Source of the DNA: an uncultured Desulfobacteraceae bacterium
GTDB taxonomy: Bacteria > Desulfobacterota > DSM-4660 > Desulfatiglandales > B25-G16
DNA: 64,000 bases
Assembly (NCBI GenBank): GCA_964549945.1
Contig: CAZJXD010000001.1
Location: 84,346-148,345 of the forward strand
Direction of reading: 5' to 3'
How positions within the stretch are numbered: position 1 is the first letter of the stretch; each line of letters begins with the position of its first letter. The position numbers were made by a program, and so were the translations under genes. Under the pieces are notes generated by a model. The model saw only the letters and a program-made list of their open reading frames with translations. It was not told where the DNA came from and made no database searches. Positions 24,818 through 61,289 of this stretch are shown piece after piece.

Positions 24818-24872
24818 TTGACATAAAAACAGGGGCCCAATATAGTTCCGAGTAATTTGTATACTGTATACA
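24818..24872 (+). promoter_or_regulatory. Sigma70-type promoter TTGACA-17-TATAGT plus palindromic operator tgtatactgtataca
   Basis: The -35 element is at 24818-24823, the spacer is exactly 17 nt, and the -10 is at 24841-24846. The 15-bp perfect palindrome at 24858-24872 lies just downstream of the -10. The ATG of the OYE-type reductase is at 24904 with an AAGGAGG RBS. Confidence 0.55.
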
Positions 24873-24903: not shown

Positions 24904-26886
24904 ATGGGTACACTACTGTTTGAATGGGATTATTCATCGTATCCTGGGGCAGGGAAATACCCTCATCTTTTCAAGCCGATCCAGCTAGGCAATCTCACTA
25001 TCCCAAACCGGATAAAGTACGCTGCTACCGAGGAGAACCTGAACGGGAGAGACGGTTTCGTAACCGACGCGGGCGTTGCCTACCTCAGGGAGAGGGCCAA
25101 AGGTGTGGTGGGCGGGATATGCACCATGCAAGGTGTCTATATGGATAAGGGCAGGCAAGGCCAGGGGTATGTCGGTCAAGCCGCTGCCTGGGATGATAAA
25201 TTCATCCCTGGTTTGAAGCGGCTCGCAGATGTCATCCATGAGGCCAGAGCGGTGGCGGGCTGCCAGCTAATGCACTGCGGCCGCGTTGGAGCCGTTGAGA
25301 CGGAATACTGTCAGGGCCCATCACCAGTTCCCCAGCGATTGAGGATCTTCCGGCCGGTAAAGGAAATGAGCAAGGAGGATATAAAGCAGTGCCTTAAGGA
25401 GCACGTGGAGGCAACGGAACGCCTGTTAAAGGCGGGTTTTGACATCGTTGAGATTTCGGGTATCGTGGGCTACTTGCTCTCCAATTTCGTATCCAGCTAT
25501 ACCAATAGGCGGACCGATGAGTACGGGGGGGATATACGTGGAAGGATGAGGTTCGTCGTGGAATGCATCCGGGAGGTGAAAAAGGTATGCGGCGATGTGC
25601 CCGTGGGCATCAGGCTCTGTGCCGAGGAGCTCTTAGATGATGTGGGCGGAAACACGCCTGAGGAATCCATGATCACCTATGAGATGGCAGAGGAGGCGGG
25701 AGCGGATTATATGAGCGTGACCGCAGGCTGGCAGGAGTCGATCTATCCGGTGATCAGCAGGGATATTCCCCAGGGGACCTGGCTCCATCTCGCTAAACGC
25801 GCCAAACAGCACCTCACGATACCCGTCGCAATGGCGTATCGACTCTTTGACCCGGCGATTCCTCATAAGGCCATTGAGCAGGGAAAGCTGGATATATGGG
25901 AGATGTGCCGTCCCATGATCGCCGATCCACTGATGCCGAAGAAGGTCTTGGAAGGAAATGAGGAGGAAATAAGGCCCTGTGTTGCCTGCAATCTCTGCCT
26001 CGCAAGGCTGTTCAGGGATGCGCCCATGACCTGCTACATCAATCCCATCTGTGCCCATGAGTGGGATCCGAAATACGAGATCAAACCAGCGGAGATGACG
26101 AAGAACATCATGATTGTCGGCGCTGGTCCTGCGGGCCTGGAGTGCGCCTGGGTAGCCGCTGAGAGAGGCCACGAGGTGCATGTGTATGACAAGAGGGAGG
26201 AGCTGGGCGGCTCCATTATCGATGCCTCCAAGGCCCCCTATGGTGACGACGAACTGTACGGGCAGATACGATTCACCAAGGCCATGTGTGAGAAGAACGG
26301 GGTAGAGTTCCACTTGGGCACCGAGGTGACCCCCGAGGTGATCGAGGAGGAGATGCCAGACTCGGTAGTTCTGGCCACAGGGCCGAGGTACGTCAAGGGA
26401 ACAGCCCCGGGTTTTGACCGGGAAAACGTCGTCTCTGTTTTGGATGTGCTCAACGGGAAGGCTGAGGTAGGAGAAAAGGCTGTCGTTTGGGGAAATCTCA
26501 AGCCTGGGATCGGGGTAGCCCTCTACCTGGCCAAACAGGGCAAGAAGGTGACCATCGTGGGCAAAGATCGCAAGCTCGGCAAGGATATCAATCCTTCCTT
26601 TAAGTGGCGGTACGCGAGATACCTAATAGATAACAGGGTCAAGATTTACAATGACTGCGATATCGAAGAAATCACCAATGACGGTGTTATCGTGAAAACC
26701 TATGACGGCTATCGGATCCCGATCGAGGCCGACACCGTAATAACCTCCGAGAGGGAGGCGAATCCCGGGCTGAAGGATGTAGTCCAGGAAAACGGTATTG
26801 AGCTTTTTGTCATTGGAGATGCACTGGTACCCCGGAATCTCTCGAGTGCTGTTCATGATGGCTACCGGATAGGTCTCCGAATCTAA
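24904..26886 (+). CDS. Old-yellow-enzyme-family FMN/[4Fe-4S]/FAD oxidoreductase (2,4-dienoyl-CoA reductase-like enoyl-/aryl-CoA reductase)
   Basis: The ORF is 660 aa. The N-terminal TIM-barrel OYE region contains LFKPIQLGNLTIPNRIKYAATE and QLMHCGR. The cluster motif is RPCVACNLCLARLFRDAPMTCYINPIC (CxxCxxC-x11-C). The C-terminal region has the dinucleotide fold IMIVGAGPAGLECAWVAAERGHEVHVYD. Confidence 0.85.
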   Translation: MGTLLFEWDYSSYPGAGKYPHLFKPIQLGNLTIPNRIKYAATEENLNGRDGFVTDAGVAYLRERAKGVVGGICTMQGVYMDKGRQGQGYVGQAAAWDDKFIPGLKRLADVIHEARAVAGCQLMHCGRVGAVETEYCQGPSPVPQRLRIFRPVKEMSKEDIKQCLKEHVEATERLLKAGFDIVEISGIVGYLLSNFVSSYTNRRTDEYGGDIRGRMRFVVECIREVKKVCGDVPVGIRLCAEELLDDVGGNTPEESMITYEMAEEAGADYMSVTAGWQESIYPVISRDIPQGTWLHLAKRAKQHLTIPVAMAYRLFDPAIPHKAIEQGKLDIWEMCRPMIADPLMPKKVLEGNEEEIRPCVACNLCLARLFRDAPMTCYINPICAHEWDPKYEIKPAEMTKNIMIVGAGPAGLECAWVAAERGHEVHVYDKREELGGSIIDASKAPYGDDELYGQIRFTKAMCEKNGVEFHLGTEVTPEVIEEEMPDSVVLATGPRYVKGTAPGFDRENVVSVLDVLNGKAEVGEKAVVWGNLKPGIGVALYLAKQGKKVTIVGKDRKLGKDINPSFKWRYARYLIDNRVKIYNDCDIEEITNDGVIVKTYDGYRIPIEADTVITSEREANPGLKDVVQENGIELFVIGDALVPRNLSSAVHDGYRIGLRI

Positions 26887-26900
26887 GAAGGAGGTGAGCG

Positions 26901-27422
26901 ATGCCAGTTGATCCACAAAGAGAATTGACAAGATTGCATGATGCCTTAGGTATTTCACAAGCTGTCATTAAAAGTACCTTTTTCGAGTGGCGCCAAACGG
27001 CCCTTGATTTACTCGGGCCCGGTTCTGACCCACTGAACGTCGTCCTCAAGTTTTGGGAAACAGCCGGTATAGACGTTGCCAAGGGTTTCTTTCCCATGCT
27101 GGACCTGCGCAAGGGTGAGGAGGGCGTCATTCTTGATCTGGGTAGGGCCTTGGCCGGCACGGGAATTGCTAATGGGGCCGTGGTTACTGTTGAAAAAGGC
27201 GAGGCTCCCTTTGAAGCTCTCATCAGATGGCACAGATGTCCCTGGCCAACCTTTGCCAGACGCTACGGTGTCTCTATGAAGGAGGATCTCTTGGGCTGCG
27301 ACAGATTTCTTCAGACAATTGTTGCCGAGGCAAACGCCCTCCTGGGTACCGACTTTAAGATAGAGACGCAGAAGGCCATCCCAAGCGGCGATGGCCTGTG
27401 TCTCCGGAGACTATTCAAGTAA
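26901..27422 (+). CDS. Hypothetical small Cys-containing protein
   Basis: The ORF is 173 aa with a good RBS (GAAGGAGG). The pattern RCPWP...GCDRF...GLCLRRLF reminds me of the small L-2-amino-thiazoline-4-carboxylate-hydrolase-like family. That is an unverified recollection. Confidence 0.6.
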   Translation: MPVDPQRELTRLHDALGISQAVIKSTFFEWRQTALDLLGPGSDPLNVVLKFWETAGIDVAKGFFPMLDLRKGEEGVILDLGRALAGTGIANGAVVTVEKGEAPFEALIRWHRCPWPTFARRYGVSMKEDLLGCDRFLQTIVAEANALLGTDFKIETQKAIPSGDGLCLRRLFK

Positions 27423-27444
27423 GTAAATGACAGGAGGATGAAAC

Positions 27445-27651
27445 ATGGCAGCACAAGTCGACATGAACAAATGCACCATGTGCGGGGGGACAAAAGAACC
27501 TATCTGTGTTGAGATGTGTCCAGACCAGGCTATCAGGGTGCAAGACGATAGAATCGTGGTCACGGAGTTCCTGTGCGAAGACTGCAACGAGTGCGGCTTC
27601 AGATGCCCGGATCACGCTATTTCCCTTCCCCTTGAGCTGGTAACCTTTTAA
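27445..27651 (+). CDS. Small ferredoxin-like protein with two non-canonical Cys clusters
   Basis: The ORF is 68 aa with an AGGAGG RBS. The Cys clusters are CTMCGGTKEPICVEMCP and CEDCNECGFRCP. Confidence 0.8.
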   Translation: MAAQVDMNKCTMCGGTKEPICVEMCPDQAIRVQDDRIVVTEFLCEDCNECGFRCPDHAISLPLELVTF

Positions 27652-27672
27652 TAAGGAAAATAAATTAACCTT

Positions 27673-27879
27673 AACCGCAGACCTACGCGGACCTTTTTCT
27701 CTGCCGACATTGGCAGAGAAAAAGTTGTCGGCTTTTTTTCTTCAAACCGAAATGTTTTATTTCAGGCCTTGGTTACTCGCAATCAACTACTTGGCATTCA
27801 CCTTTTCTAATATAGAGAATCGATTATATCTTTTAGCCGAGCATGTCGCTCGGCTAAAAGTCTGCGTGGGTCTGCGGTT
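27673..27879 (+). repeat. 207-bp structured intergenic element: 20-bp closing inverted repeat plus two 13-bp perfect hairpins
   Basis: The arm aaccgcagacctacgcggac (27673-27692) pairs with gtctgcgtgggtctgcggtt (27860-27879). Both mismatches are G-U compatible only on the plus-strand transcript. Hairpin H1 is 27693-27705/27712-27724. Hairpin H2 is 27830-27842/27848-27860. Confidence 0.6.
27703..27739 (+). terminator. Possible intrinsic terminator overlapping hairpin H1 (alternative structures)
   Basis: The stem is gccgaca (27703-27709) / tgtcggc (27726-27732). It is followed by seven T (27733-27739). Its left arm shares three nt with the stronger 13-bp hairpin H1. Confidence 0.35.
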
Positions 27880-27900
27880 TATTACAAAAAGGAGAAGGAG

Positions 27901-28320
27901 ATGAAGGTAAACAAGATCGATCACATCTGTATTGCCGTAAAGGATCTGGATGAGGCTCGAAAGATCTGGGAGCCCATTCTCGGCAAGCCGGAACCAGATG
28001 ATCCCTACGTGGACGAGCCGGAGAAGATCAGGGTCGCTCGATACTGGCTGGGGGATGTAGGCTTTGAGTTAATGGAGTCCACCTCCCCGGACGGTGAGGT
28101 CGCCAAGTTTATCGAGCGGCATGGCGAGGGCATCATGCTTATGAGTTTCAATGTGGATAACACAAGGGAGGCCATGGAGGAGCTGAAGGCAAAAGGCTAT
28201 TCCTTTATTGGGGGCGCCAGGCCTTTCAGGGATTGTGAATTTGCCTTCATTCACCCAAAGGCCGTAAACGGCGTGTTGCTGGAGTTAATCGATTATAAGT
28301 GGGATGAATTGAAGAAGTAG
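27901..28320 (+). CDS. Methylmalonyl-CoA epimerase-like VOC/glyoxalase-fold protein
   Basis: The ORF is 139 aa with an AGGAGAAGGAG RBS. It contains IDHICIAVKDLDEARKIW, HGEGIMLMSF and FIHPKAVNGVLLELI, which fit the epimerase subfamily pattern. Confidence 0.75.
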   Translation: MKVNKIDHICIAVKDLDEARKIWEPILGKPEPDDPYVDEPEKIRVARYWLGDVGFELMESTSPDGEVAKFIERHGEGIMLMSFNVDNTREAMEELKAKGYSFIGGARPFRDCEFAFIHPKAVNGVLLELIDYKWDELKK

Positions 28321-28374
28321 GTTGCGTGTTACTCATTCAACCTTACTCGTCTGAACCGGTTTTAAATGAAAAGA

Positions 28375-30174
28375 TCAATTGGCCCCATTTATTTCATAGA
28401 TTTTCATCATCTTTTTTTCTAGCCCCTCCTGCGCCAAGCGTATCTCTAAATCACACTGAAGGCACCGCTTTGCCTCTCGCTTTGCCCGCTCTTCATCGAA
28501 ACCGAGCTCAACCTCCCCAAGCCCCTCATGTCTCTCCTCAAGGGGCATGGTGGGCATGTTCTCCCTCTTGAGATCCGCAAATCCTTCCTCCCTCCTCCCC
28601 GTGTACGGCTGGGGGGAGATTCTATCTATTGCCAATTGCCCATTGCCCATCCCCGATTCAGAGATATCGCCATCCCCGCCCAAGAAGATATCAATGGAAC
28701 ACGCGGCCCTCCTTCCTGCGGCGATAGCATCGATAATGGTGCCGGGGGCCTTGGCCACATCACCGCCCACAAACACACCGGGCATCCCCGTTTCGAGGGT
28801 TTCGTCATCAAATATGATACACTCATTCTCAACCATTACCTCCCCATTGGCGCCGATACATGAGAGATCGGGGGCTTGACCTATTGCGAGGATCACCTGC
28901 TCGGTTCTCACCGTTTCCCGTATGTTCGCAAAATCTGGGCAGAACTTACCCTCCTCATCGAACACCGAGGTGCACCGCACGAGCTCTACGCCGGTGATAG
29001 TTCCGCTCTCCTCCAGTATCCTGCTCGGCCCCCATGAGGGCATGATCACAACGCCCTCCTCTATGGCCTGCTCGATTTCCCACTGGTTAGCCGGCATCTC
29101 CTCCCTGCATTCCAGGCAGGCCATTGTTACCTCCTTGGCACCGAGCCGTAAGGCGGTGAGCGCCACATCGATAGCCACATTGCCTCCCCCGACCACGAGC
29201 ACGTGATCCTTGAGGGCAACACCCTTTCCCTCGTTCACCTCGCGCAGGAAGTCAAGGCCCCACAGCACGTCATGGTGATTTCCCCCAGCGAGATCTATCC
29301 TCTTGCTGAGGTTTGCGCCAACTGCGATGAACACCGCTTCGTAGCCATCAGCCCTGAGGCTATCCAGGTCGAAATCCCTTCCCAGTTTTTGATTCGCCTT
29401 GAGCTCGATGCCGAGCTCGAGGATTCCCTTTATCTCCTCCTCCACCACGTTCTTGGGCAGGCGAAAATCGGGGATACCGAATCGCATCATCCCCCCTGGC
29501 TCGGGCATCTCCTCGAACACGGTGATGCGATGCCCCTTCTTCCGCAAGTAGAAGGCAGCGGTCAGGCCCGCAGGACCGGCACCGATAATCGCGACCTTGT
29601 GGCCGGTATCGGGGGCAAGCCTTGTGGCGCCCTCTGCCATCTCCGTCGCGTTATCAGCTGCGTAGCGCTTAAGCGCGCATATGGCAATGGGCTCATTGAC
29701 CTCCCCTCGCCTGCATGCATCCTCACAGGGATGGGTGCAGACACGACCCAGGATACCCGGAAAGGGCACCTTTTCTCGAATCAAGGCGTGCGCCTCATCG
29801 ATCTTCCCCTCTGCGATGAGCCTCAGGTATCCCGGTATATCGATTCCCGCGGGGCAGGCCTCAATACAGGGGGGAGCAGAGGGAATGAACTCCTTCGGGG
29901 CGAGGGCACGTAAAGGCCGCATGATATCGAGGATGGCGATGCCGTTTGGGCATACCTCCTCACACCTGCCACAGGTGGTGCAGGACCACGGATAGGGGGA
30001 GGCGGCGATCTCGTGGCTCAGGTCGAGCTCCACATGCCTCAGCACTCTTCTGATATTAAAGCCATTCACTCCGGTGAGGGGGCACGCGGAGCTACAGAGC
30101 CCGCATTGCTCGCAGGCACGAAACATGCTCACTTCATCGACGAACTTCTCGGCCAATCCTGTTCTAGTACCCAT
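28375..30174 (-). CDS. Fusion of HdrC-like di-[4Fe-4S] domain with NfnB/GltD-like FAD/NAD(P)H oxidoreductase
   Basis: The ORF is 599 aa. The N-terminal region has CEQCGLCSSACP ... CTTCGRCEEVCP. It then has CIEACPAGIDIPGYL...VCTHPCEDACRRG and VAIIGAGPAGLTAAFYLRKKGHRITVFE...GGMMRFGIPDFRLPK, typical of the glutamate synthase small-subunit family. Confidence 0.8.
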   Translation of the reverse strand: MGTRTGLAEKFVDEVSMFRACEQCGLCSSACPLTGVNGFNIRRVLRHVELDLSHEIAASPYPWSCTTCGRCEEVCPNGIAILDIMRPLRALAPKEFIPSAPPCIEACPAGIDIPGYLRLIAEGKIDEAHALIREKVPFPGILGRVCTHPCEDACRRGEVNEPIAICALKRYAADNATEMAEGATRLAPDTGHKVAIIGAGPAGLTAAFYLRKKGHRITVFEEMPEPGGMMRFGIPDFRLPKNVVEEEIKGILELGIELKANQKLGRDFDLDSLRADGYEAVFIAVGANLSKRIDLAGGNHHDVLWGLDFLREVNEGKGVALKDHVLVVGGGNVAIDVALTALRLGAKEVTMACLECREEMPANQWEIEQAIEEGVVIMPSWGPSRILEESGTITGVELVRCTSVFDEEGKFCPDFANIRETVRTEQVILAIGQAPDLSCIGANGEVMVENECIIFDDETLETGMPGVFVGGDVAKAPGTIIDAIAAGRRAACSIDIFLGGDGDISESGMGNGQLAIDRISPQPYTGRREEGFADLKRENMPTMPLEERHEGLGEVELGFDEERAKREAKRCLQCDLEIRLAQEGLEKKMMKIYEINGAN

Positions 30175-30195
30175 AAATCCTTATTTTTGATTTTT

Positions 30196-30256
30196 GATTT
30201 GCGATTTTCGATTGGTGAACTTGCTTTTTGCTGATCATCTCTCACAATCGCAAATC
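30196..30256 (-). other. Intercistronic hairpin (11-bp perfect inverted repeat) between the two Hdr-like genes
   Basis: The arms are gatttgcgatt (30196-30206) and aatcgcaaatc (30246-30256). The right arm touches the TAG stop (30256-30258) of the upstream gene. Confidence 0.5.
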
Positions 30257-32319
30257 TAAAATTTTTCAAGTCCCAGGTGTTTCACCATTTCCCTCATGGT
30301 ATTCGCGAACTTCGGGCCATCTGCGGCCGAACACCAGATATTCCAGAGCTTATCGGGATCATACCCCTTTCTCGCCAATCTCTTCTTCGCCTTCTTGATC
30401 CTCTGCTCGGCCGCGTAGTTGCCCTTGATATAGTGGCATGTGGGAAACTCACAGCCCGCCACAAGCACGCCCGCCGCACCCAGCTCAAAGGCCCTCTCTA
30501 TAAAGTCAACGGACACCCTTGCCGAGCACATCACCCGTATGAGCCGCGCGTTGGAAGGGTACTGAAGCCTGCTCACGCCTGCCATGTCCACTCCTCCCAG
30601 GGCACACCAGTGACACACAAACCCGATGATTTTCTCCTCAGCCCTCTCCTCCAGGGCAGCCTCCACCTGGGCGAGGATCTGCTCGTCTGAATAATGGATA
30701 ATGGTGACGGCGTTCTTGGGACAATCCGCTGCGCAGAGACCGCAGCCCTTGCACAGGGCCTTGATTACCTGTGGTTTCTCATCCACCCACTGGATTGCAC
30801 CATAGGGGCAATTTTTTTCGCACAACCCGCAGCCACTACAGAGATCCAGATCGATATCCGCCACGATTCCCTCAGCCTCAAGGAACCCCCTTTTCATGGG
30901 AATCGAGGCCCTCATGGCTGCTCCCGCACCCTCTTCCATAGACTCCTTCAGGCTCTTTGGAGATCGCGCGCATCCACACAGGGAGATGCCGTCGGAGGGA
31001 AAATCCAAAGGGCCGAGTTTTATGTGGGCCTCCTGGAAGAACCCATCGGGATTTGTAGAGACCTTGAGAAGGCCCTTGATCTCATCAACGGTATCATTGC
31101 CCTTGAAGCCTGTGGTGAGCACGATCAGGTCGGCAGGAATGCCGAGTTCCTTGCCGAGCAGCAGATCGTGCACGTGCACCGAGAGATTGCCGTCCTCCAC
31201 TCTCACCTCGGGGTACCGGTCATCGGGGAAACGTATGAATCGGGCTCCCGCCTTTTTCGCCGCCTCTAGATCCGACCCCTCCTCCCTCACCATGCTGAGA
31301 TCCCTGTAAAGGATATGCACGCGGAGAGCATCGTTGCGAGCCTTAAGGGTCAGCGCGTTTTTGACAGATATGTGGCATCCTATTGCACAACAACCGCGGG
31401 ATTCGTTTTTCGAGTTGACACAGTTGATGATCACCACGTCTCCTATATCACCGACCTCATCTCGTTTCAGCATCCCCTCAAATTCAAGCTGGGTAATCAC
31501 CCGAGGATCGTGGCCGTATTCGAATTGTCCAGCTGGTTCGATCTCCTTCATCCCGGTGGCCACAATGATGGTTGAGACATCGAGCTCCTCCCTTGACCCA
31601 TTTGCCCTTACTGTGACCTTATAGTTGCCAATGTATCCCTCGACGGCCTCTATCACGCCGTTTGTATATACCTTGATGTTTGGGTGAGACTCAACAAGGG
31701 CAACCGTGGAGTTCACGATCTCATCGGCCACTACTGTTCCATGATCGTGAGAGATGGCTGCAATACGGTTGAGAAGGCCGCCCAGCTTGGATTCCCTCTC
31801 CACGAGTATTGCGTGAAACCCCTGATCAGCTATGTGTAGTGCGGCGTTCATCCCGGCTATGCCACCCCCTAATATCAGGCAGTCCGTTTTCACGGGGAGC
31901 CGTATCTCCTGACCCTCCTCGAGAAGCGCGGCCTTGGCAACGCCCATCTTTACGAGATCCTTGGCCTTATCCGTTGCCTTTTTGGGGTCGTCTCGGTGAA
32001 CCCAGGAAGACTGTTCCCTGATGCTCACGAACTCAAGCAAGTAGGGATTCAACCCCGCCTCCTTGACTGTCCTCCTGAAAAGCGGCTCATGGGTCCTTGG
32101 CGTACACGATGCGATGACGACCCTGTTGAGGCTATGCTCTTTGATAAGCTCCTTCATCGTGGCGAGATAGTCCACCGAGCACGACCATTTTCCCTCATCG
32201 GCAAGGACCACGTGTTTTAGTCCCCTGGCATACTCGACGACCTCGGGCACATTCACGATACCCGCGATGTTCGAACCACAATCACAGATAAAGGCGCCTA
32301 TCCTGATTTCCTCGCTCAT
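30256..32319 (-). CDS. HdrA-like flavoprotein fused to MvhD-like C-terminal domain (QmoB-like architecture)
   Basis: The ORF is 687 aa. It contains ILGGGIAGMNAALHIADQG (FAD), ferredoxin motifs CSGCGLCEKNCP and CKGCGLCAADCP, and a C-terminal IIGFVCHWCALGGVDMAG...RVMCSARV (MvhD/FlpD-like). Confidence 0.85.
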   Translation of the reverse strand: MSEEIRIGAFICDCGSNIAGIVNVPEVVEYARGLKHVVLADEGKWSCSVDYLATMKELIKEHSLNRVVIASCTPRTHEPLFRRTVKEAGLNPYLLEFVSIREQSSWVHRDDPKKATDKAKDLVKMGVAKAALLEEGQEIRLPVKTDCLILGGGIAGMNAALHIADQGFHAILVERESKLGGLLNRIAAISHDHGTVVADEIVNSTVALVESHPNIKVYTNGVIEAVEGYIGNYKVTVRANGSREELDVSTIIVATGMKEIEPAGQFEYGHDPRVITQLEFEGMLKRDEVGDIGDVVIINCVNSKNESRGCCAIGCHISVKNALTLKARNDALRVHILYRDLSMVREEGSDLEAAKKAGARFIRFPDDRYPEVRVEDGNLSVHVHDLLLGKELGIPADLIVLTTGFKGNDTVDEIKGLLKVSTNPDGFFQEAHIKLGPLDFPSDGISLCGCARSPKSLKESMEEGAGAAMRASIPMKRGFLEAEGIVADIDLDLCSGCGLCEKNCPYGAIQWVDEKPQVIKALCKGCGLCAADCPKNAVTIIHYSDEQILAQVEAALEERAEEKIIGFVCHWCALGGVDMAGVSRLQYPSNARLIRVMCSARVSVDFIERAFELGAAGVLVAGCEFPTCHYIKGNYAAEQRIKKAKKRLARKGYDPDKLWNIWCSAADGPKFANTMREMVKHLGLEKF

Positions 32320-32323
32320 CCGA

Positions 32324-33679
32324 CTAACCTTTTGTGTTTCTCGATACCGCTTTCATGGCAGCCGCGCCCGCCTGGACGACCGATTCGGAGATATCGATTG
32401 GACCGGTGGCACCACCGCACACGTATATTCCCTCCACGTTGGTTTCAAGCGGTGCCATCACCGGTTCCCGCTCCTTGAAGAACCCCAGATCATCAAGCTC
32501 TATTTTCAGTACCTTTGCCAATCTCTTGTTTCGCTCGCTCGGGATAAGCCCGGTGGAAAGGACCAGGAGTTCCACCTGCTGCTGCTCGATTTCACCCGTA
32601 TCCAGGTTCTCGTACCTCACGGTCAAATTCCTGGTCTCAGGATCCTCGAACACATCGTAGGGCCTGGCCTTTACATACCTGACGCCGCTTTCCCTGGCCT
32701 TCTGATAAAATCCCCAAAAACCCTTCCCATATGCCTTGAGGTCGTTATAGAATACCGTGGTCTCAGCGGTTGCATCGTGCTCCTTGTTGATAATGGTCTG
32801 CTTTGTGGCCACCATACAGCATACCTTCGAGCAGTACGGCAAGCCCTTGGTCAAACCCCTACCTGCGCATTGAATCCAGGCGATCTTTTTCGCGTGTTTC
32901 CCATCGGAGGGCCTGATAATCTCGCCCGCTGTTGGGCCTCCGGCATTCATCAACCTCTCAAACTGGGTGTTCGTGATCACGTTGTCATAGATATTGTAGC
33001 CGTAGAGCCCTGTGTCCGGCTCCGCAGATCGTATGCCCGTGGCCACGATAATCCCATCAACCTCGATGTCCATAGGCCTGTCAGCCTGCCAGAGGACCAC
33101 CGCATCCTTTCCCTCCTCTTTGCATGCCTTCACGCACAGCGCAATGGGGCACTCCCTGCACTGGCTACAGTCCACCACGCATCCCCCAACGCAGGCCCCC
33201 TGCTCGCGCATCTTTCCATAGCGGCACCGGGGATCGATGACCGATACATTTGGCACGGCCTGCGGAAAGGGCATGTATATCAGCTTCCTCATGCCGCCAA
33301 TCTTTCCATCCAGTTCATCGGGAACAATCACCGGGCAGGCCTCAACGCATTTTCCGCAGCCGGTACACTTCTGCTCATCGATATATCTGCCCTTTTTGAT
33401 CAACCTCGCGGTGAAGGTGCCATTGTGTTCGTTGACCCTTCTCACCTCTGTGTTGGTGAGTATTTCTATGTTGGGATGATTATCCACCTCATACATCAGG
33501 GGAGATTCTATGCATATGGAGCAGTCGTTAGTGGGAAAGGTCTTATCCAGCCTCGCCATCATCCCGCCTATGCTGGCCGTATCATCGACGAGGTACACCT
33601 TGCAGCCATAGTCGGCTGCGTTCAGGGCCGCATTGATGCCGGCAATGCCGCCGCCTATTATCAAGATCGCCTCGGACAT
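32324..33679 (-). CDS. HdrA-like FAD/FeS flavoprotein (QmoA-like)
   Basis: The ORF is 451 aa. It contains ILIIGGGIAGINAALNAADYG, CTGCGKCVEACP and IQCAGRGLTKGLPYCSKVCCMVATK, the HdrA signature arrangement. Confidence 0.85.
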   Translation of the reverse strand: MSEAILIIGGGIAGINAALNAADYGCKVYLVDDTASIGGMMARLDKTFPTNDCSICIESPLMYEVDNHPNIEILTNTEVRRVNEHNGTFTARLIKKGRYIDEQKCTGCGKCVEACPVIVPDELDGKIGGMRKLIYMPFPQAVPNVSVIDPRCRYGKMREQGACVGGCVVDCSQCRECPIALCVKACKEEGKDAVVLWQADRPMDIEVDGIIVATGIRSAEPDTGLYGYNIYDNVITNTQFERLMNAGGPTAGEIIRPSDGKHAKKIAWIQCAGRGLTKGLPYCSKVCCMVATKQTIINKEHDATAETTVFYNDLKAYGKGFWGFYQKARESGVRYVKARPYDVFEDPETRNLTVRYENLDTGEIEQQQVELLVLSTGLIPSERNKRLAKVLKIELDDLGFFKEREPVMAPLETNVEGIYVCGGATGPIDISESVVQAGAAAMKAVSRNTKG

Positions 33680-33808
33680 AGTTTTTGTTTATGGAGTTTA
33701 TGGAGTTTGTTGTGTTTCTTGGGTTCTTTTTCTATATTTAAGTCAGGTTGATCGGTTTACCGTTCATGGTTCCCGGTTCCCGAATTGCATAGCGAAGCGA
33801 GCTTGCGA

Positions 33809-34066
33809 TTATATCTCCGTTACTATGATCGCTTCGGCTTTACACACGGCCTCGCAGGTGCCGCAGCCCAAGCAGTTCTGGCTACGAGCCGGAAAGGACC
33901 TTCCTGCCCTCATCTCAAAGACATCCACCGGACACAACTCAGCGCACTCACCGCAGCCATTACATCTCGCGCTTTCGACTTTTATCAGATAAACGAAGTA
34001 TTCCCTCTTTTCCCTTCCCACGTGATGCCATTTTTTCTTGACAAAGATTTTGTATACAGTATACAT
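33809..34066 (-). CDS. 2x[4Fe-4S] ferredoxin; start codon uncertain
   Basis: The core is VESARCNGCGECAELCPVDVFEM...QNCLGCGTCEAVCKAEAIIV. The track ATG (34064-34066) lies inside the palindromic operator and upstream of the predicted minus-strand TSS. An in-frame GTG at 34019-34021 is an alternative start. A purine tract GGGAAGGGAAAAGAGGGAA follows it. Confidence 0.6.
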   Translation of the reverse strand: MYTVYKIFVKKKWHHVGREKREYFVYLIKVESARCNGCGECAELCPVDVFEMRAGRSFPARSQNCLGCGTCEAVCKAEAIIVTEI

Positions 34067-34217: not shown

Positions 34218-36242
34218 ATGGCCCAAGAAAGGAAGCTGTACCCCTCGTTTCGTAATCCATTATGCCTGAAGCTCGATCGTCCCCTTCCAGAGGAGATAGC
34301 GGTAATCGGGGCAGGAACGATCGGGCCCGATATTGGGTATTACCTGAAATCAGCCCTTCCGGGAATAAAACTCTTTCTCGTGGATGTGGTTGAGGAGCCC
34401 TTGAAGAACGCCGAGAAGAGGATCTCCGGATACGTTCAGAAGGCAGCGGACAGAAGGAAGATGACAGAAGATCAGGCCAACGCAATCCTCAGCAATATCA
34501 CCTACACCATGGACTACGAGAAGATCAGTGGATGCGATCTGGTGATTGAGGCCGCCACGGAGAACGTAGCCTTAAAGAAGAAGGTATTCGAGGACGTTGA
34601 AGCCCTTGTCAGCGAGAAGGCCATCCTCACCTCGAATACCAGCTCCATACCTGCTGACAGGATCTTCGCGAACATGAAAAAGCCAGAGAGGTCCACTATA
34701 ACCCACTTCTTTGCGCCGGCGTGGCGAAGCCTGCCGGTGGAGGTAATTCGGTGGGAGGGAGCCAGCCAGGAGGTCGTTGATTACCTGTTCTGGTTTTTCG
34801 CCCACACGGGCAAGGCCCCCCTTATAACCGACAACGCCATTTGCTTCATGTTGGACCGGGTCTTCGATAACTGGTGCAATGAGGCCGCCTATCTGCTGGA
34901 GCATGCATCCGCGAGCCAGATAGACAAGGCCGCGGAGGAGTTCGTGTTTGCGGGCCCTTTCTATGTCCTCAATATGGCACGGGGTAACCCCATTATCGTT
35001 GAAACCAACACCCTCCAGATGGAAGAGGGGCCCCACTATAAACCGGCTAGGATCCTGGAATCTGTTGACACGTGGCAAACGCATAGACCAGGTTCAAAGG
35101 TGGACGTTCCAGGGGAGTTAGGTAATCTAATCAGAGACAGATTGCTGGGCATTCTCTTGTCGCAGTCCTTTGATATCATCGATAGGGGGATCGGCACCAG
35201 GGAAGACCTCAATTTCGGTTGCCAGATCGCCCTGGGATTTAGGAAAGGGCCATTTGATATCATCAGGGAACTCGGTGAGGGAGAGGTCGAGCGGATCATG
35301 GCCGAATTCCAGAAGGAAAGGCCCGGATTTCCGGGGCCGAGGCAACCCCTCTCCGCATACCAGGAGTTCCCGCGCCACCTCATCGTTGATGAGATGGACG
35401 GGGTTGTGATTATCACCCTCAGGAGACCGCAGGCGATGAATGCCATCAGCGACGAGATAAATGATGAGATCCTCTCGGTGTTGAGGGAACACATCGATAA
35501 CCCGGAGGTGAGGGGATTTGTGATCACCGGATACGGGAACAGCGCCTTCTCGGCGGGTGCGGATATCGGTAAGTTCCCGCAGACCCTCGGAAACAAGGAT
35601 GCGGCGCTTCACTACGCAAAGGACTGCGCACAGGTACAGCTCTTCATGGACCGGATGGAGAAACCGATAGTCGCGGCGATAAACGGCATGGCCCTGGGTG
35701 GGGGTCTGGAGGTGGCGCTTCGATGTCATGGAATGGTGGCCACCAAAAACGCGATCTTCCAGTTCCCTGAGATCACCCTCGGGATCCTGCCAGGCATCGG
35801 CGGGTGCATCGTCCCCTATCGGAAGTGGCCTCAGGGAGCGAAGCTCTTTCATGAGATGATCTGCTTTGCCAGGCGCATTACCGCCAATGAGGCTTCCGAT
35901 ATCGGTATGGTGGATAGGATCGCAGATGACTACTCTGAGATGATCAGGGAGGCGGTAAAAGCGGTCCACGGCTTGCAGGGGAAGATCAGAAGGATCCCCG
36001 ATGGACCTGTTGATATCCCGGAGATAACCATCCCTGAGAAGCCCATGGCGGGAAAGCTGCCCTTAAGCAAGGAGGCCATCTCGATTATCGCAAAGACCAT
36101 CAAGACAGGAGCGGCTGCCGGTTCCTTTGCCGAGGCCCTTGAGATAGGGTATCGAGGATCCGCTGAGATTGCCTGCACAGAGGCGGCAAAGGAAGGGATC
36201 TCGGCCTTCCTCGAGAAGAGAAGGCCGGAGTTCAAGAGGTAG
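34218..36242 (+). CDS. Bifunctional 3-hydroxyacyl-CoA dehydrogenase (N) / enoyl-CoA hydratase (C) fusion
   Basis: The ORF is 674 aa. IAVIGAGTIGPDIGYYL is a NAD Rossmann fold at the N-terminus. The C-terminal crotonase fold has VVIITLRRPQAMNAISDEI...FVITGYGNSAFSAGADI...AAINGMALGGGLEVAL. The domain order is the reverse of FadB. Confidence 0.85.
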   Translation: MAQERKLYPSFRNPLCLKLDRPLPEEIAVIGAGTIGPDIGYYLKSALPGIKLFLVDVVEEPLKNAEKRISGYVQKAADRRKMTEDQANAILSNITYTMDYEKISGCDLVIEAATENVALKKKVFEDVEALVSEKAILTSNTSSIPADRIFANMKKPERSTITHFFAPAWRSLPVEVIRWEGASQEVVDYLFWFFAHTGKAPLITDNAICFMLDRVFDNWCNEAAYLLEHASASQIDKAAEEFVFAGPFYVLNMARGNPIIVETNTLQMEEGPHYKPARILESVDTWQTHRPGSKVDVPGELGNLIRDRLLGILLSQSFDIIDRGIGTREDLNFGCQIALGFRKGPFDIIRELGEGEVERIMAEFQKERPGFPGPRQPLSAYQEFPRHLIVDEMDGVVIITLRRPQAMNAISDEINDEILSVLREHIDNPEVRGFVITGYGNSAFSAGADIGKFPQTLGNKDAALHYAKDCAQVQLFMDRMEKPIVAAINGMALGGGLEVALRCHGMVATKNAIFQFPEITLGILPGIGGCIVPYRKWPQGAKLFHEMICFARRITANEASDIGMVDRIADDYSEMIREAVKAVHGLQGKIRRIPDGPVDIPEITIPEKPMAGKLPLSKEAISIIAKTIKTGAAAGSFAEALEIGYRGSAEIACTEAAKEGISAFLEKRRPEFKR

Positions 36243-36325
36243 GTGGCTTTGACGTTATCCTGAGGGATGGGGAATCCATATAGACCCGTGATTTGTGTTC
36301 GGGCTGCTGCAAGAGGAGAAGCACT

Positions 36326-37516
36326 ATGGAGCTATTTAGGGATATGACAATACTATCCCTGGAGCAGGCAACAACCCTGCCCTACCTCACCTACAGGCTC
36401 GTCCAGGACGGGATGAATGTAGTTAGAGTCGAACATCCGGTCTATGGTGACCCAAACCGGATGATCGGGGAGAACTACCTCAAAGAAGAGCGGATGCATT
36501 GCTATTACCTCTGTATTAATGCAGGGAAAAAGGCGATTACCCTTAACCTGGCAGAGGAAAAGGGCAAGCAAATCTTACGAGAGCTTATCGTGAAACTCAA
36601 GGTTGATATCTTTGCCACCAATCAACTGCCGAGAAACTATGGAAAGTTGGGAGTGGATTACGAGACGTTAAGAGAGATTAAATCGGATATTATCTGGCTG
36701 GGCATTACAGGCTTTGGGCCCGAGATTAATGAGGCGGCTTATGAGCCGATCCTCGAGGCGAGATCCGGATTAATGGAGGTAACCGGAGAGCCTGACGGTG
36801 AACCCCAATCGCTTGGTATACCCTTGGCCGATATGGGCACAAGCGAACACGCCTACGGGCTGCTGATGAAGGCCCTATTGAAGCGGGAGAGGACAGGCGA
36901 GGGATCAAGGATCGATATATCTATGCTTGAGTCGGCAACCTCCTGGCTCACCGTGGCAACGACGTTAACGGCAACCTTTGGCGAAAAAGTGACAAGATCC
37001 GGAAATACCCATCAATACTTTGCACCTGTATCCGTTTTTAAGACAAAGAACGGCTATGTATACATGGCCGTTGGTAATGATCGACAATGGAAGGCTTTTG
37101 CGTCGCTGCCCCGGTTTCAGCTCCTCGATAAACCGGAATACGAGAAAAACGAGGGCAGAATACATGACGTAGTGAACCTGAACAAATCGATCAGCGAGGT
37201 CTTAGAAACGCTTACCTCGGAAGAGCTCATTGAAAAGTTCAACAAGATAGGGCTCCCCATAAGCAAGATCAACACCATCCCCGAGGTATTGGATGATCCC
37301 CTCATGAAAAGGAGGCTTCTTAAATCCAGGGATTCAAAATCGGGGCTTGAACTCACACTTGCACCAGCACCGTTTGTGACACCATTTCTCGATGAGTCTA
37401 ACAACACGCTTTCCTTCCCCCCCAGATTCGGAGAGCACAACAGGGAGATATATTGCCACATCCTCGGCTATTCCGAGGACGAGGTAACCAGGTTCAAGGA
37501 AGAAGGGGTAATATAG
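36326..37516 (+). CDS. Family III CoA-transferase (CaiB/BaiF family)
   Basis: The track ORF starts at 36293. The Met at 36326 has AGGAG 8 nt upstream. It contains ILSLEQATTLPYLTYRLVQDGMNVVRVE, GIPLADMGTSEHAYGLLMKAL and FAPVSVFKTKNGYVYMAV. Confidence 0.85.
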   Translation: MELFRDMTILSLEQATTLPYLTYRLVQDGMNVVRVEHPVYGDPNRMIGENYLKEERMHCYYLCINAGKKAITLNLAEEKGKQILRELIVKLKVDIFATNQLPRNYGKLGVDYETLREIKSDIIWLGITGFGPEINEAAYEPILEARSGLMEVTGEPDGEPQSLGIPLADMGTSEHAYGLLMKALLKRERTGEGSRIDISMLESATSWLTVATTLTATFGEKVTRSGNTHQYFAPVSVFKTKNGYVYMAVGNDRQWKAFASLPRFQLLDKPEYEKNEGRIHDVVNLNKSISEVLETLTSEELIEKFNKIGLPISKINTIPEVLDDPLMKRRLLKSRDSKSGLELTLAPAPFVTPFLDESNNTLSFPPRFGEHNREIYCHILGYSEDEVTRFKEEGVI

Positions 37517-37518
37517 CC

Positions 37519-38310
37519 ATGCGAATCATCGTCCTTATCAAGCAGGTGCCCGACACCACGGAGATCAAGATCGATCAGAAGACCGGCACACTCATCAGGG
37601 AGGGTGTAGAGAGCATTATCAATCCTGATGACAGGCATGCCATTGAGCTCGCCGTGACATTAAAAGGGGATCATGGGGGAAAGGCCACGGTGCTCTCAAT
37701 GGGCCCTCCCCAGGCGATCGATGCTATCTCCGAGGCAATGGGGATGGGCATCGATGAGGGAATACTGCTTACCGACAGGAATTTTGCAGGTGCGGATACC
37801 TGGGCCACCGCATTCACGCTTGGAATGGCCATAAAGAGGCTAAGGAGATACGATCTGATCATCTGCGGAAGGCAGGCGATCGACGGCGACACGGCCCAGA
37901 TAGGCCCCCAGGTCGCGGAGTTCTTGGGCCTGCCCCAGCTTACCTATGTGAGGGGGATCGAGGAGATCGACGAGAAACGCATCGTGGTCCAGAGAAGCCT
38001 GGAGGACGGCTACGAGAGGATGGCTTCCCCGCTTCCCGCCTTGATTACCGTCATAGGCGAGATAAACAGGCCGAGGTCTCCAAGGGTGGATCTCCTCATC
38101 GACGCCTGCAAGGATGTGGCGAATATCAAGATCTGGGATGTGGCGGACTTAGGTCTCACTGTGCAGGAGGTCGGTTTAAGAGGCTCTCTCACACGGGTGA
38201 TCAAGACGTTTCCCCCCAAGTCCAAGAGGGAGGGGGAGATGTTAAAGGGCAGTAAGGATGAAGTAGTGAGTCAACTGTTAGATAGGATGCACAGCAAACA
38301 TCTTGTGTAA
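37519..38310 (+). CDS. etfB: Electron transfer flavoprotein beta subunit
   Basis: The internal Met at 37519 gives the canonical MRIIVLIKQVPDTTEIKIDQKTGTLIREGVESIINPDDRHAIELAV. The longer track ORF overlaps the preceding gene. Confidence 0.9.
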   Translation: MRIIVLIKQVPDTTEIKIDQKTGTLIREGVESIINPDDRHAIELAVTLKGDHGGKATVLSMGPPQAIDAISEAMGMGIDEGILLTDRNFAGADTWATAFTLGMAIKRLRRYDLIICGRQAIDGDTAQIGPQVAEFLGLPQLTYVRGIEEIDEKRIVVQRSLEDGYERMASPLPALITVIGEINRPRSPRVDLLIDACKDVANIKIWDVADLGLTVQEVGLRGSLTRVIKTFPPKSKREGEMLKGSKDEVVSQLLDRMHSKHLV

Positions 38311-38331
38311 GGAGAACGTAGCGTTTTGGCT

Positions 38332-38454
38332 GGAGTATTGGAGCATTGGAGAAGTGGAGCAATGGATTAATGTCTGAACGTAACTCTATCGTAGAGAAAT
38401 GTAAAAAAATCCTCTGATCACCATTACTCCAGCACTCCAATTCTCCATTATTCC
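38332..38454 (+). other. Long imperfect hairpin in the etfB-etfA spacer
   Basis: The left arm is ggagtattggagcattggagaagtggagcaatgg (38332-38365). The right arm is ccattactccagcactccaattctccattattcc (38421-38454). They are complementary at 27 of 34 positions by my count. The arms are built from repeated GGAG/CTCC words. Confidence 0.5.
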
Positions 38455-38476
38455 ATAAATCTTAAGGGGATTACCT

Positions 38477-39670: not shown

Positions 39671-39674
39671 GGAG

Positions 39675-40835: not shown

Positions 40836-41549
40836 ATGGAAAAAGGACCACTACATACGAACAAAGGGAATTCTACCCTGATAAAGCCCATTAAAAAGGA
40901 GAACCTCGGGAGCCAGGTCTTTGAGCAGATAAAGGGGATGATCCTGAGGGGGGAGATCCCTCCCGAAAGACGCATGATAGAAAGCGAGATTGCCCTCTCA
41001 ATGGGCATTAGCAGAACCCCAGTCAGAGAGGCAGTACATAAGCTTGAGGCAGAAGGCTTCCTCACGCCCCTTCCCAAGGGAGGGTATGTGGTGAGAGGGC
41101 TCACCATCTCCGATATCGAGGACACCTTCGACATCCGGAGTATTCTGGAGAGCTTTGCCGGGTATCTCACCGCCAAGAGGCATGTTGAGGATGAGCTTAT
41201 CGCTCTGGAGGTGAAGATAGATGAGTTTCAGCGATATCTGGACGGAGGTAATCTAAAAAGACTCGCCGTGGTAAATACCGAGTTCCATGAAGCCCTTTAC
41301 GCAATGAGCAAGAGCCCTCGGTTAACAAAGATGATTCATGGTCTCAGGGATGAGATCTACTTTTTAAGAAAGATCATACTCAAATCGGAGGAGATGGCTC
41401 GATTGTCCAATAAGGATCATAGAGAGATAGTAGATGCCATAAAGAAAAGAGAGGCGGAAAAGGTAGAGAGGCAGCTCAAAGAGCATATCTTAAGGGGTAA
41501 GGACTTTGTCCTCAATGAAATCAAGAAGGGAAATGTGAGCATTAGCTAA
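40836..41549 (+). CDS. GntR-family transcriptional regulator, FadR-type (FCD C-terminal domain)
   Basis: The ORF is 237 aa. The winged HTH is SEIALSMGISRTPVREAVHKLEAEGFL. The all-helical C-terminal domain has EFHEALY and DHREIVDAI, which are FCD-like His/Asp ligand positions. Confidence 0.85.
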   Translation: MEKGPLHTNKGNSTLIKPIKKENLGSQVFEQIKGMILRGEIPPERRMIESEIALSMGISRTPVREAVHKLEAEGFLTPLPKGGYVVRGLTISDIEDTFDIRSILESFAGYLTAKRHVEDELIALEVKIDEFQRYLDGGNLKRLAVVNTEFHEALYAMSKSPRLTKMIHGLRDEIYFLRKIILKSEEMARLSNKDHREIVDAIKKREAEKVERQLKEHILRGKDFVLNEIKKGNVSIS

Positions 41550-41981: not shown

Positions 41982-41998
41982 TGGTACCTGGGTTGAGC

Positions 41999-42208: not shown

Positions 42209-42255
42209 AAAAACTCAAGGAACTCAACAAACACTAGAAACAGGAGTAACCAGGG

Positions 42256-43884: not shown

Positions 43885-43915
43885 GGAAAGAAACTACTCA
43901 ATATTAACCAAAAAA

Positions 43916-53617: not shown

Positions 53618-53648
53618 AACTCTTTAGCATCATATGTTTGACTAAACT

Positions 53649-61280: not shown

Positions 61281-61289
61281 GGAGATAAC

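Follow-up and report, generated by a model that had tools for sequence, protein, structure and literature searches.

How an old yellow enzyme (OYE)-family reductase without an NAD(P)H-binding motif obtains its electrons is the question raised by positions 24904-34066 of the 64,000-nt stretch of Desulfobacteraceae DNA analysed here (the window). The natural electron donor of the NCR-type (type III) reductases, to which its closest solved relative belongs, has been stated to be unidentified (PMC6502838; PMC13365417). In the window, an operon headed by the OYE gene faces an operon of Hdr- and Nfn-like genes, and a preliminary description of the sequence proposed that the latter encode an NAD(P)H-driven bifurcating or confurcating module for the former. 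Our check of open reading frames (ORFs) and Pfam domains recovered every gene and domain named there (Table 1). It also placed in the OYE operon a fourth gene, coding for an epimerase-like protein, that had been missed.

The evidence that ties the two gene sets together is their neighbourhood. One genome per species was scanned with conserved peptides of the HdrC-like + NfnB/GltD-like fusion protein (HdrC-NfnB), which gave the best 80 loci; neighbour families were counted over 84 related loci. Among the loci found via HdrC-NfnB that had at least 3.7 kb of upstream flank (n = 58), the gene of the HdrA-like + MvhD fusion (HdrA-MvhD) was present in 57 and that of the HdrA core protein in 56. An OYE ortholog was found in 41 of the 46 loci with at least 9 kb upstream, and in 42 when L003, whose OYE gene is cut by the end of the fetched stretch, is included. 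Starting from OYE orthologs, all three Hdr-like genes were adjacent in six of six look-ups. In 39 of the 42 loci, all eight genes are collinear on one strand in the order OYE, 173-aa accessory protein (p173), ferredoxin Fd68, epimerase-like protein, ferredoxin Fd85, HdrA, HdrA-MvhD and HdrC-NfnB. L091 carries one string of ten genes, in which OYE, p173, a ferredoxin and the epimerase-like gene are followed by a hydratase/dehydrogenase (HAD/ECH) gene, a DUF35/HMG-CoA-synthase-like gene and a thiolase gene, and then by HdrA, HdrA-MvhD and HdrC-NfnB. Neighbourhood conservation thus strongly supports a functional connection of the OYE with the Hdr/Nfn-like genes. The co-occurrence suggested as a check in the preliminary description is borne out, and the opposite pattern, Hdr-like genes accompanied by classical partners and never by OYE genes, is clearly not the one observed.

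The best 80 loci all come from metagenome-assembled genomes (MAGs), and no isolate carrying the eight-gene unit was found. Nearly all of these MAGs belong to Desulfobacterota, with single MAGs labelled Anaerolineales, Planctomycetota, Gammaproteobacteria and Syntrophorhabdales. The unit itself is present in MAGs labelled Desulfobacterota, Dehalococcoidia, Anaerolineales and Planctomycetota, labels outside Desulfobacterota being possibly binning errors. Relatives of HdrC-NfnB in public metagenomes are full-length proteins of ~585 aa, with 62-87% identity among the 120 best; each of these 120 matches represents one 90%-identity cluster, all have the same length and domain set at no less than 62% identity, and their habitats are marine, marsh and aquifer sediments. 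Sequencing runs of DNA identify the source as a sediment metagenome and contain relatives from marsh, marine and mangrove sediments, and no enrichment culture hinting at a substrate was among the DNA runs searched.

The convergent pair of operons noted in the preliminary description exists in the window, but the usual arrangement is collinear. The convergent layout was found only in the window, in its closest relatives L007, L008, L010, L011 and L092, and in the Dehalococcoidia-labelled L085 and L087. Because the convergent form is limited to these close relatives and to the L085/L087 lineage, the window's layout is a derived inversion of the usually collinear unit.

The OYE protein shares the FMN/[4Fe-4S]/FAD three-domain plan of NCR. 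It matches PF00724 (Oxidored_FMN) with an E value of 4e-58 over residues 22-353, and also Pyr_redox_2. Its FAD motif, GAGPAG, lies at residue 406, and the four [4Fe-4S] cysteines, C359, C362, C365 and C377, align with the NCR and FadH motifs and are invariant in 36 orthologs, the set used for all OYE invariance counts. The closest solved structure is NCR (6QKG), matched over the full length with 473 bits and 39.5% identity; E. coli FadH (1PS9) follows with 284 bits and 33% identity, and amine dehydrogenases and the Oxidored_FMN-domain protein 6l6j score below FadH. An exhaustive search of 1.84 billion cluster representatives showed that the OYE clade is a single 50%-identity cluster (73% identity, 1138 bits), after which the next match drops to 44% identity, in the cluster that contains NCR (51% identity to NCR). 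The phylogenetic placement suggested earlier was made with a neighbour-joining (distance) tree, with few named reference sequences and no named DHNCR, AprB-E or dienoyl-CoA oxidase sequences. In 100 bootstraps, the window clade was recovered with a support of 100, its union with an unnamed clade C with 100, and the union of both with the NCR clade with 99, FadH-like sequences falling outside. Based on these sequences, the OYE is placed on the NCR side, in its own clade, as sister to clade C.

The active-site residues were compared with those of NCR and FadH. The NCR residues Tyr197 (proton donor), Tyr82, Arg245 (R237 in the OYE), Tyr320 and Glu341 (E333 in the OYE) are conserved, without variation in at least 35 of the 36 orthologs; the roles of the NCR residues, including that of Glu341 in lowering the FMN potential, are taken from PMC6502838. 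FadH has the same fold, cofactors and Tyr proton donor as the OYE, but it lacks the Glu341 equivalent and has His26 and an NADPH GxGxxG motif. At the position of NCR Val38 and FadH His26, the OYE has an invariant Glu43, and NCR His284 and Asn247 are replaced by Gln and Cys, respectively, which, like the Leu at the NCR W459 position, are conserved to the same degree. FadH (GCGGIG) and clade C (GGGKIG) have the GxGxxG motif of the NADPH domain, and NCR (GGNEISIQ) and the window clade (GNLKPGIG) lack it. The OYE is therefore an NCR-like reductase that probably does not use NAD(P)H directly, and the absence of the motif would make it dependent on an external one-electron donor, of the ferredoxin type, as proposed for NCR (PMC6502838). 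The small genes that follow the clade-C OYE gene in L089 were considered as counterparts of those for p173 and Fd68 and were discarded, as they are not homologous.

The three Hdr/Nfn-like proteins are candidates for such a donor system. Alignments were made with Methanothermococcus HdrA (5ODC) and the HdrA chain 9SFI_A. For the short HdrA core protein (HdrA451), the matches to 5odc_A and 9sfi_A have an E value of 1e-110. Its TrxR-like FAD domain contains the sequence FPTNDCSIC (CxxC pair), and the protein further has the Lys409 equivalent (CCMVATK), an adjacent 4-Cys cluster and an inserted ferredoxin domain. The latter contains an extra insert of ~25 residues with C152, C163, C167 and C171, which are invariant in 47 orthologs; this insert is absent from the aligned methanogen HdrA structures and may hold an additional Fe-S cluster on the low-potential exit. 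HdrA-MvhD matches HdrA structures at E 8e-122 and consists of an N-terminal cluster domain, a FAD domain of the TrxR type that lacks the CxxC pair, and a C-terminal part with a 2x[4Fe-4S] domain and a complete MvhD [2Fe-2S] domain. FPTNDCSIC is found in HdrA451 only, and HdrA-MvhD has no inserted ferredoxin domain. As judged from these alignments, HdrA451 and HdrA-MvhD split between them the domains that the methanogen HdrA homodimer supplies twice.

In the HdrC-NfnB fusion, the HdrC-like domain carries two [4Fe-4S] motifs (C21-C31 and C65-C75), and the NfnB/GltD-like domain carries the Fer4_20 clusters, an FAD motif (GAGPAG at 198) and an NAD(P)H motif (GGGNVA at 329), the motifs being invariant. 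The protein matches PF14691 and PF07992 and the structures 5vj7, 4ylf and 5jca at E 1e-72, and its best solved matches, including the C-terminal extension, are 9bov, 9n5u (NfnA) and 8oh5_C. This extension carries the invariant sequence RCLQCDLE and aligns with the NfnB-like parts of 9BOV, 9N5U and 8OH5_C. Four near-invariant cysteines, C353, C401, C571 and C574, lie outside the known cluster motifs, two of them within RCLQCDLE, and may form an extra metal or cluster site. All cluster cysteines of the Hdr/Nfn-like proteins are invariant in 47-72 orthologs.

The absence of classical Hdr partners, already remarked on in the preliminary description, holds in the window and beyond. None of the eight window proteins has a Pfam match to, or a signature of, the CCG domain, and the signature occurs in only 1 of 967 ORFs across the 84 related loci. 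The eight proteins also lack any 19-residue stretch with the hydrophobicity required of a membrane helix. Apr-like genes are found neither beside the module in the window nor among the recurrent families of the related loci, and no family of HdrB, Qmo-type membrane subunits, Apr or hydrogenase recurs there. Of the curated NCBIfam families, none is matched above its cutoff by any of the eight proteins; the best matches, mycofactocin OYE_2, BaiCD, HdrA2 and PRK12771, are all below cutoff, and membership is not claimed.

We consider it reasonably probable that the unit is a soluble, ATP- and tungsten-independent acyl/aryl-CoA reductase system with flavin-based bifurcation or confurcation; gene content, motifs, phylogenetic position and linkage are what the sequences show, and complex formation, the electron path and its direction, CoA-ester reduction and the substrate class are what we infer from them. 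In the proposed mechanism, the NCR-type OYE would be the catalytic subunit, transferring a hydride from FMN to the substrate with a proton from Tyr190, and its FMN would be fed via the [4Fe-4S] cluster from a surface FAD. Fd68, whose gene accompanies every OYE ortholog, even where the second ferredoxin is missing, would be the likely single-electron donor to the OYE. The electrons would be handled by a Qmo-like HdrA heterodimer. HdrA451 would hold the bifurcating FAD, since its CxxC pair, conserved Lys, neighbouring 4-Cys cluster and inserted ferredoxin domain are all marks of such a unit; the last of these would be the low-potential exit. The C-terminal ferredoxin domain and the MvhD [2Fe-2S] of HdrA-MvhD would form the entry path, and the HdrC-like clusters would lead to the fused NfnB/GltD FAD/NAD(P)(H) site, not to HdrB or to a membrane cytochrome. 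Three couples would be joined, i.e., NAD(P)+/NAD(P)H, oxidized/reduced ferredoxin and OYE substrate/product.

This wiring is modelled on solved systems. In BCRII, one of the two HdrA units carries the bifurcating FAD (bioRxiv 10.64898/2026.04.10.717634). In the solved Hdr and BCRII structures, electrons enter via a C-terminal ferredoxin domain and MvhD to the bifurcating FAD, leave at high potential via an adjacent cluster to HdrC/HdrD-type clusters, and leave at low potential through the inserted ferredoxin domain, which in BCRII leads to the aromatic-ring reductase (bioRxiv 10.64898/2026.04.10.717634). By analogy with this wiring, NAD(P) would lie on the high-potential branch. If the NAD(P) couple is the most positive of the three, the OYE substrate would lie below about -320 mV. 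The proposal of a bifurcating or confurcating module for the OYE thus stands as regards the link between the two, but its NAD(P)H-driven character is not established: because the NfnB domain sits on the HdrC high-potential branch, NAD(P)+ may be the acceptor, or NAD(P)H may be the co-donor in confurcation. In the variant that we prefer, reduced ferredoxin would enter, one electron would flow downhill via HdrC-NfnB to NAD(P)+, and the other would be driven uphill via the inserted ferredoxin domain and Fd68 to the OYE, as in BCRII. Such a system would permit the reduction of a CoA ester below the ferredoxin potential, such as a conjugated, cyclic-dienoyl or aromatic one. The epimerase/isomerase-like protein, a hydratase/dehydrogenase (HAD/ECH) and a thiolase would then act on the product.

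The next most likely variant is a confurcating supply, in which NAD(P)H, via NfnB-HdrC, and reduced ferredoxin would together reduce the HdrA FAD, which would pass its electrons via MvhD to the OYE for a substrate of ~-400 mV. This would be the same machine run in reverse, and would resemble in soluble form the confurcation proposed for QmoABC and APS reductase. We regard it as a possibility worth keeping, if an unlikely one. In its favour, the unit follows the QmoA-like, QmoB-like and HdrC-like plan of domains, the Hdr wiring has MvhD as mid-potential port, and the NCR-family couples lie between -375 and -493 mV (PMC12016498). Against it, reduced ferredoxin alone should suffice for a -400 mV substrate, so that the only gain would be the ferredoxin saved, and Qmo confurcation is itself a proposed model. 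Sequence alone cannot tell this direction from the preferred one.

A different reading would make the unit an energy-conserving 2,4-dienoyl- or enoyl-CoA reductase of beta-oxidation, comparable to Bcd/EtfAB or caffeyl-CoA reductase, with NAD(P)H as donor, the easily reduced dienoyl-CoA, via the OYE, as high-potential acceptor and the small ferredoxins as low-potential acceptor, so that an exergonic reduction would pay for reduced ferredoxin. The label 2,4-dienoyl-CoA reductase that public sources give to the OYE orthologs fits this reading, as do the conservation of the Tyr proton donor and of the active-site scaffold common to FadH and NCR, and the Leu at the NCR W459 position, which is nearer to FadH's Phe. 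Moreover, the neighbours repeatedly include HAD/ECH, thiolase, acyl-CoA dehydrogenase and ETF genes, and the unit is common in fatty-acid-degrading Desulfobacterota. Nevertheless, the OYE groups with NCR and keeps the low-potential FMN glutamate that FadH lacks, the NfnB domain is fused to an HdrC-like branch that is the high-potential exit and not the donor entry in solved systems, and the regulon includes aryl-CoA-type enzymes. E. coli FadH works alone with NADPH, and dienoyl-CoA reduction would thus require no partner. We consider this reading rather unlikely. That the Hdr/Nfn-like proteins are an uncoupled ferredoxin:NAD(P)+ oxidoreductase, standing in for Nfn or HdrL within a shared catabolic island, is very improbable: five loci (L001, L002, L013, L064 and L072) do carry the module without an OYE gene within 10 kb, and HdrA/GltD-type fusions (HdrL) are found in other contexts in Desulfobacterium autotrophicum (PMC2702500), but the linkage of 42/46 and 6/6, mostly as one collinear string with short gaps in several phyla, the operator shared by the operons and the OYE without an NAD(P)H site of its own all argue against it.

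Several observations weigh against our preferred reading of the unit. The preferred electron direction draws only on the Hdr/BCRII wiring, and gene linkage proves neither a physical complex nor bifurcation. The genes linked to the unit belong to general beta-oxidation and would suit a plain dienoyl-CoA reductase as well, and genes for 4-hydroxybenzoyl-CoA-reductase-like and PaaK-like enzymes are found with the unit in no lineage but that of the window (family 22: 4 loci). In the OYE itself, NCR W459, which blocks the NADPH site, is replaced by Leu451, where FadH has Phe, and acidic residues around the NCR FAD are replaced as well (E446 by S, E541 by K). Because of these replacements, the OYE FAD may be less low-potential than that of NCR. 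The OYE gene was found in no RNA run among the sequencing runs searched. Finally, the full-text literature searched yielded no published description of an OYE + Hdr/Nfn-like cluster, although an earlier one may exist; the matches in papers on Desulfococcus biacutus and BzS1 concern unrelated genes. To that extent, the subunit combination remains as unfamiliar as a characterised complex as it had been to the author of the preliminary description.

Each of the known systems differs from the unit in at least one defining feature, which places the unit outside HdrABC, QmoABC, NfnAB and BCRII. NCR is the closest solved relative of the OYE and shares its superclade. However, the OYE clade is separate and tight (at least 73% identity within it, ~40% to NCR) and is always followed by the V4R-like protein, the ferredoxin and the epimerase-like protein, in addition to its link with the Hdr/Nfn-like genes; the NCR-cluster locus L088, a single locus of 5.5 kb, shows none of these neighbours. 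In strain NaphS2, NPH_5472-74 (BamGHI-like) adjoin the NCR/DHNCR genes (PMC2988823). There is thus a precedent for a type III reductase encoded next to its own soluble electron module, although that module is a different one.

The BCRII complex BamBCDEFGHI also combines one bifurcating and one degenerate FAD unit with an MvhD adaptor in the service of a CoA-ester ring reductase, with a low-potential exit via an inserted ferredoxin domain. It differs in that the catalytic subunit here is an OYE flavoenzyme instead of the tungsten protein BamB, the HdrA units are separate proteins whereas BamE is a fused double HdrA, and the high-potential branch leads to an NAD(P)(H) site of the NfnB type, fused to it, instead of BamD and ETF. 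Domains of BamB, BamC, HdrD-like BamD and BamGHI were not found in the unit, either in the window or among the conserved families of related loci.

QmoABC lacks HdrB and combines three parts: a short flavoprotein of the HdrA type, a longer HdrA-like one fused to MvhD, and an HdrC-like domain with two [4Fe-4S] clusters. At the level of domain content, the unit follows this plan, with QmoA-like, QmoB-like and HdrC-like parts and no HdrB. However, a soluble NfnB/GltD domain takes the place of the membrane cytochrome b (HdrE-like) of QmoC, no aprBA genes are nearby and the partner is the OYE. The features of the HdrA flavoprotein of HdrABC are present, but the two-CCG HdrB subunit is not. NfnAB shares the NfnB-type domain, with its two [4Fe-4S] clusters and FAD and NAD(P)H motifs, but NfnA ([2Fe-2S] + FAD/NAD) is found neither in the unit nor among the conserved families of related loci. 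An NfnB/GltD-type domain is likewise shared with the Bfu-type NfnABC/StnABC, whose HydB/NuoF-type module has no counterpart here. A predicted Hdr/GltD combination is HdrL of Desulfobacterium autotrophicum (PMC2702500), in which the partner is HdrA, whereas here it is HdrC-like. The parts of the unit (NCR-type OYE, HdrA, MvhD, HdrC and NfnB) are thus known, and their combination would be a variant of a bifurcation-coupled CoA-ester reductase.

The two operons are further connected by a shared operator, as the preliminary description had also seen. Our analysis identified a 15-bp palindrome, TGTATACNGTATACA, in exact copies upstream of both operons and in a third copy with one mismatch (Table 1); the chance expectation in the window is ~0.0005 for an exact 14-base site. 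Copy 2 overlaps a plus-strand promoter-like element (TTGACA...TATACA). The palindrome lies upstream of OYE orthologs in L008, L010, L011, L024, L042, L066, L069, L090 and L092, of which L024, L042, L066, L069 and L090 are distant collinear clusters, and the position of copy 2 is kept in L001, L003, L005, L007, L013, L072 and L092. GntR/FCD genes accompany the palindrome in the window, L072 and L090, and the GntR/FCD-family protein of the window is the likely binder, as judged from this association. TetR, encoded upstream of many orthologs, was rejected as binder, TetR and the palindrome being largely mutually exclusive across loci.

Table 1. Features of the window discussed in the text.
Feature	Position	Strand	Remarks
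Sigma-70-like promoter, TTGACA-17 nt-TATAGT	24818-24846	+	11/12 matches; upstream of the OYE operon; consensus match only
Operator copy 1, TGTATACTGTATACA	24858-24872	.	Perfect palindrome; just 3' of the -10 hexamer
NCR-superclade OYE, 660 aa	24904-26886	+	FMN TIM barrel, [4Fe-4S] linker, FAD domain; no NAD(P)H GxGxxG
173-aa accessory protein (p173)	26901-27422	+	V4R/Bet3/MopR-sensor-like fold; weak ATC_hydrolase (PF14196) signal; no Pfam family
Fd68, 2x[4Fe-4S] ferredoxin, 68 aa	27445-27651	+	Candidate direct donor to the OYE FAD domain
Methylmalonyl-CoA-epimerase-like protein, glyoxalase fold, 139 aa	27901-28320	+	TIGR03081, 85 bits (cutoff 115)
HdrC-like + NfnB/GltD-like fusion, 599 aa	28375-30174	-	Residues 13-98 HdrC; 99-575 NfnB/GltD
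HdrA-like + MvhD (FlpD) fusion, 687 aa	30256-32319	-	Pfam and structure matches
HdrA core (HdrA451), QmoA-like, 451 aa	32324-33679	-	Candidate carrier of the bifurcating FAD
Fd85, 2x[4Fe-4S] ferredoxin, ORF listed as 85 aa	33809-34066	-	Probable start GTG 34021
Operator copy 2, TGTATACAGTATACA	34051-34065	.	Between the divergent ferredoxin/Hdr and HAD/ECH operons
HAD/ECH operon	34218-40811	+	Beta-oxidation type; 3-hydroxyacyl-CoA dehydrogenase/enoyl-CoA hydratase (HAD/ECH) fusion (674 aa), family III CoA-transferase, EtfB, EtfA, acyl-CoA dehydrogenase
GntR/FCD-family regulator	40836-41549	+	Candidate palindrome binder
Operator copy 3, TGTATACTGTATACC	55249-55263	.	One mismatch; upstream of the TRAP/PaaK/Mo-enzyme operon 55590-63683

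Operator copy 2 also bears on the gene model of Fd85. The listed ATG falls inside this copy, and the true start is probably the GTG, giving a predicted protein of 70 aa, because the homologs have 68-69 aa.

Copy 3 is located ~330 bp upstream of the operon it heads, which encodes TRAP DctP/Q/M, a PaaK-like aryl(acetyl)-CoA ligase (359 bits to the phenylacetate-CoA ligase 4R1L) and a three-subunit molybdenum enzyme. For the large subunit of the latter, 4-hydroxybenzoyl-CoA reductase (1RM6_A) is by far the nearest match, with 368 bits against 213 for the next. The FAD subunit has 287 aa and is presumably too short for the [4Fe-4S] insertion of a genuine HcrC. In the window's lineage only, the palindrome regulon looks like an aromatic-acid pathway on the basis of these predicted functions. 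This context, like the similarity of p173 to aromatic-ligand sensor domains, speaks for the proposed acyl/aryl-CoA reductase system. In the HAD/ECH operon, EtfA (within 37453-39670) has an N-terminal 2x[4Fe-4S] ferredoxin domain, as in bifurcating CarE-type ETFs, and the ETF and the acyl-CoA dehydrogenase (39675-40811) form a second potential bifurcating system under the same operator.

The most far-reaching version of the preferred reading would be a fourth route of anaerobic dearomatisation, in which an OYE boosted by HdrA bifurcation, with ferredoxin as donor and NAD(P)+ as sink via HdrC-NfnB, would receive electrons well below the potential of ferredoxin and reduce monocyclic CoA esters (benzoyl-CoA-like or hydroxy/heteroaryl) without ATP or tungsten. 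We consider this version quite doubtful.

No substrate could be read from the neighbourhood of the unit in the 84 related loci: besides the eight genes, TetR and HAD/ECH, families of neighbours recur in nine of them at most. The recurrent neighbours beyond the eight genes are TetR (22 loci), the HAD/ECH fusion (14) and an aminotransferase (9); TRAP or ABC transporters and CoA ligases are scattered. The unit is repeatedly linked with HAD/ECH, thiolase, acyl-CoA dehydrogenase and ETF genes, the HAD/ECH gene lying inside the operon in L091 and L045 and the thiolase being DUF35-associated in several loci. An insert of ~2 kb separates the epimerase-like and second ferredoxin genes in L037, L046, L047, L049, L051, L057, L060, L063, L068, L071 and L081, and in nine loci of this sublineage a class I/II aminotransferase gene (~393 aa) is found there, which hints at a link to amino-acid-derived 2-oxo acids in that sublineage. 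Two other loci deviate in gene content. L011 (CP070673.1) has HdrC-NfnB and a convergent OYE operon, with no HdrA genes within the flank and a xanthine-dehydrogenase-family Mo subunit between HdrC-NfnB and the OYE operon, and L064 has HdrC-NfnB and HdrA-MvhD, with neither the short HdrA nor the OYE.

The gene for p173 follows the OYE gene in every ortholog locus examined. The preliminary description had called its product a small Cys protein; the gene is there, but the Cys character is not, as p173 has three cysteines, none of them invariant, and the idea of an Fe-S or CCG-like protein was abandoned in favour of a V4R/Bet3-like fold. A structure model built from 29 homologs (pLDDT 87.6, pTM 0.83) matches Bet3/TRAPPC3, the phenol-sensor domains of PoxR/MopR/DmpR and H-NOX with a TM of ~0.55. 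The model thus assigns p173 to the V4R-type fold for small hydrophobic ligands, in agreement with the weak ATC_hydrolase signal, and p173 might, very tentatively, be a ligand-binding or adaptor subunit.

A protein of the same general fold class is encoded elsewhere in the window. Located directly 3' of the GntR gene, the region 41583-46052 encodes a B12-dependent enzyme of the methylmalonyl-CoA-mutase family that is split into a small B12 subunit (41583-41981) and a large one (42256-43884), then an AMP-forming CoA ligase (43853-45442) and finally this V4R-domain protein (45531-46052). Further along the window, the minus strand holds two 559-aa FAD_binding_2/Succ_DH_flav_C genes (46587-48266 and 49637-51316) whose equal Pfam scores point to a recent tandem duplication of ~3 kb. 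They flank a DUF1989 gene (48599-49270), and a transporter of the TAXI-type TRAP family is encoded nearby (51668-54668).

What the unit offers to the biology of these bacteria is a genetically linked candidate donor system for a sister clade of NCR, one that current annotation hides under the names 2,4-dienoyl-CoA reductase and glutamate synthase small subunit. If the proposed mechanism is true, the few known bifurcating enzymes would be joined by a new subunit combination, an HdrA heterodimer with an HdrC branch that leads to an NAD(P) site of the NfnB type, and a Qmo-like plan could exist in a soluble, NAD(P)-linked form. The fourth dearomatisation route, if it were true, would be widespread in uncultured sediment Desulfobacterota and Chloroflexota. 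Because relatives of the fusion protein are numerous in sediment metagenomes, the reaction is probably a quantitatively relevant step of anaerobic carbon turnover in sediments. Its predicted make-up points to an uncharacterised electron-bifurcating reductase system that is common in sediment sulfate reducers.

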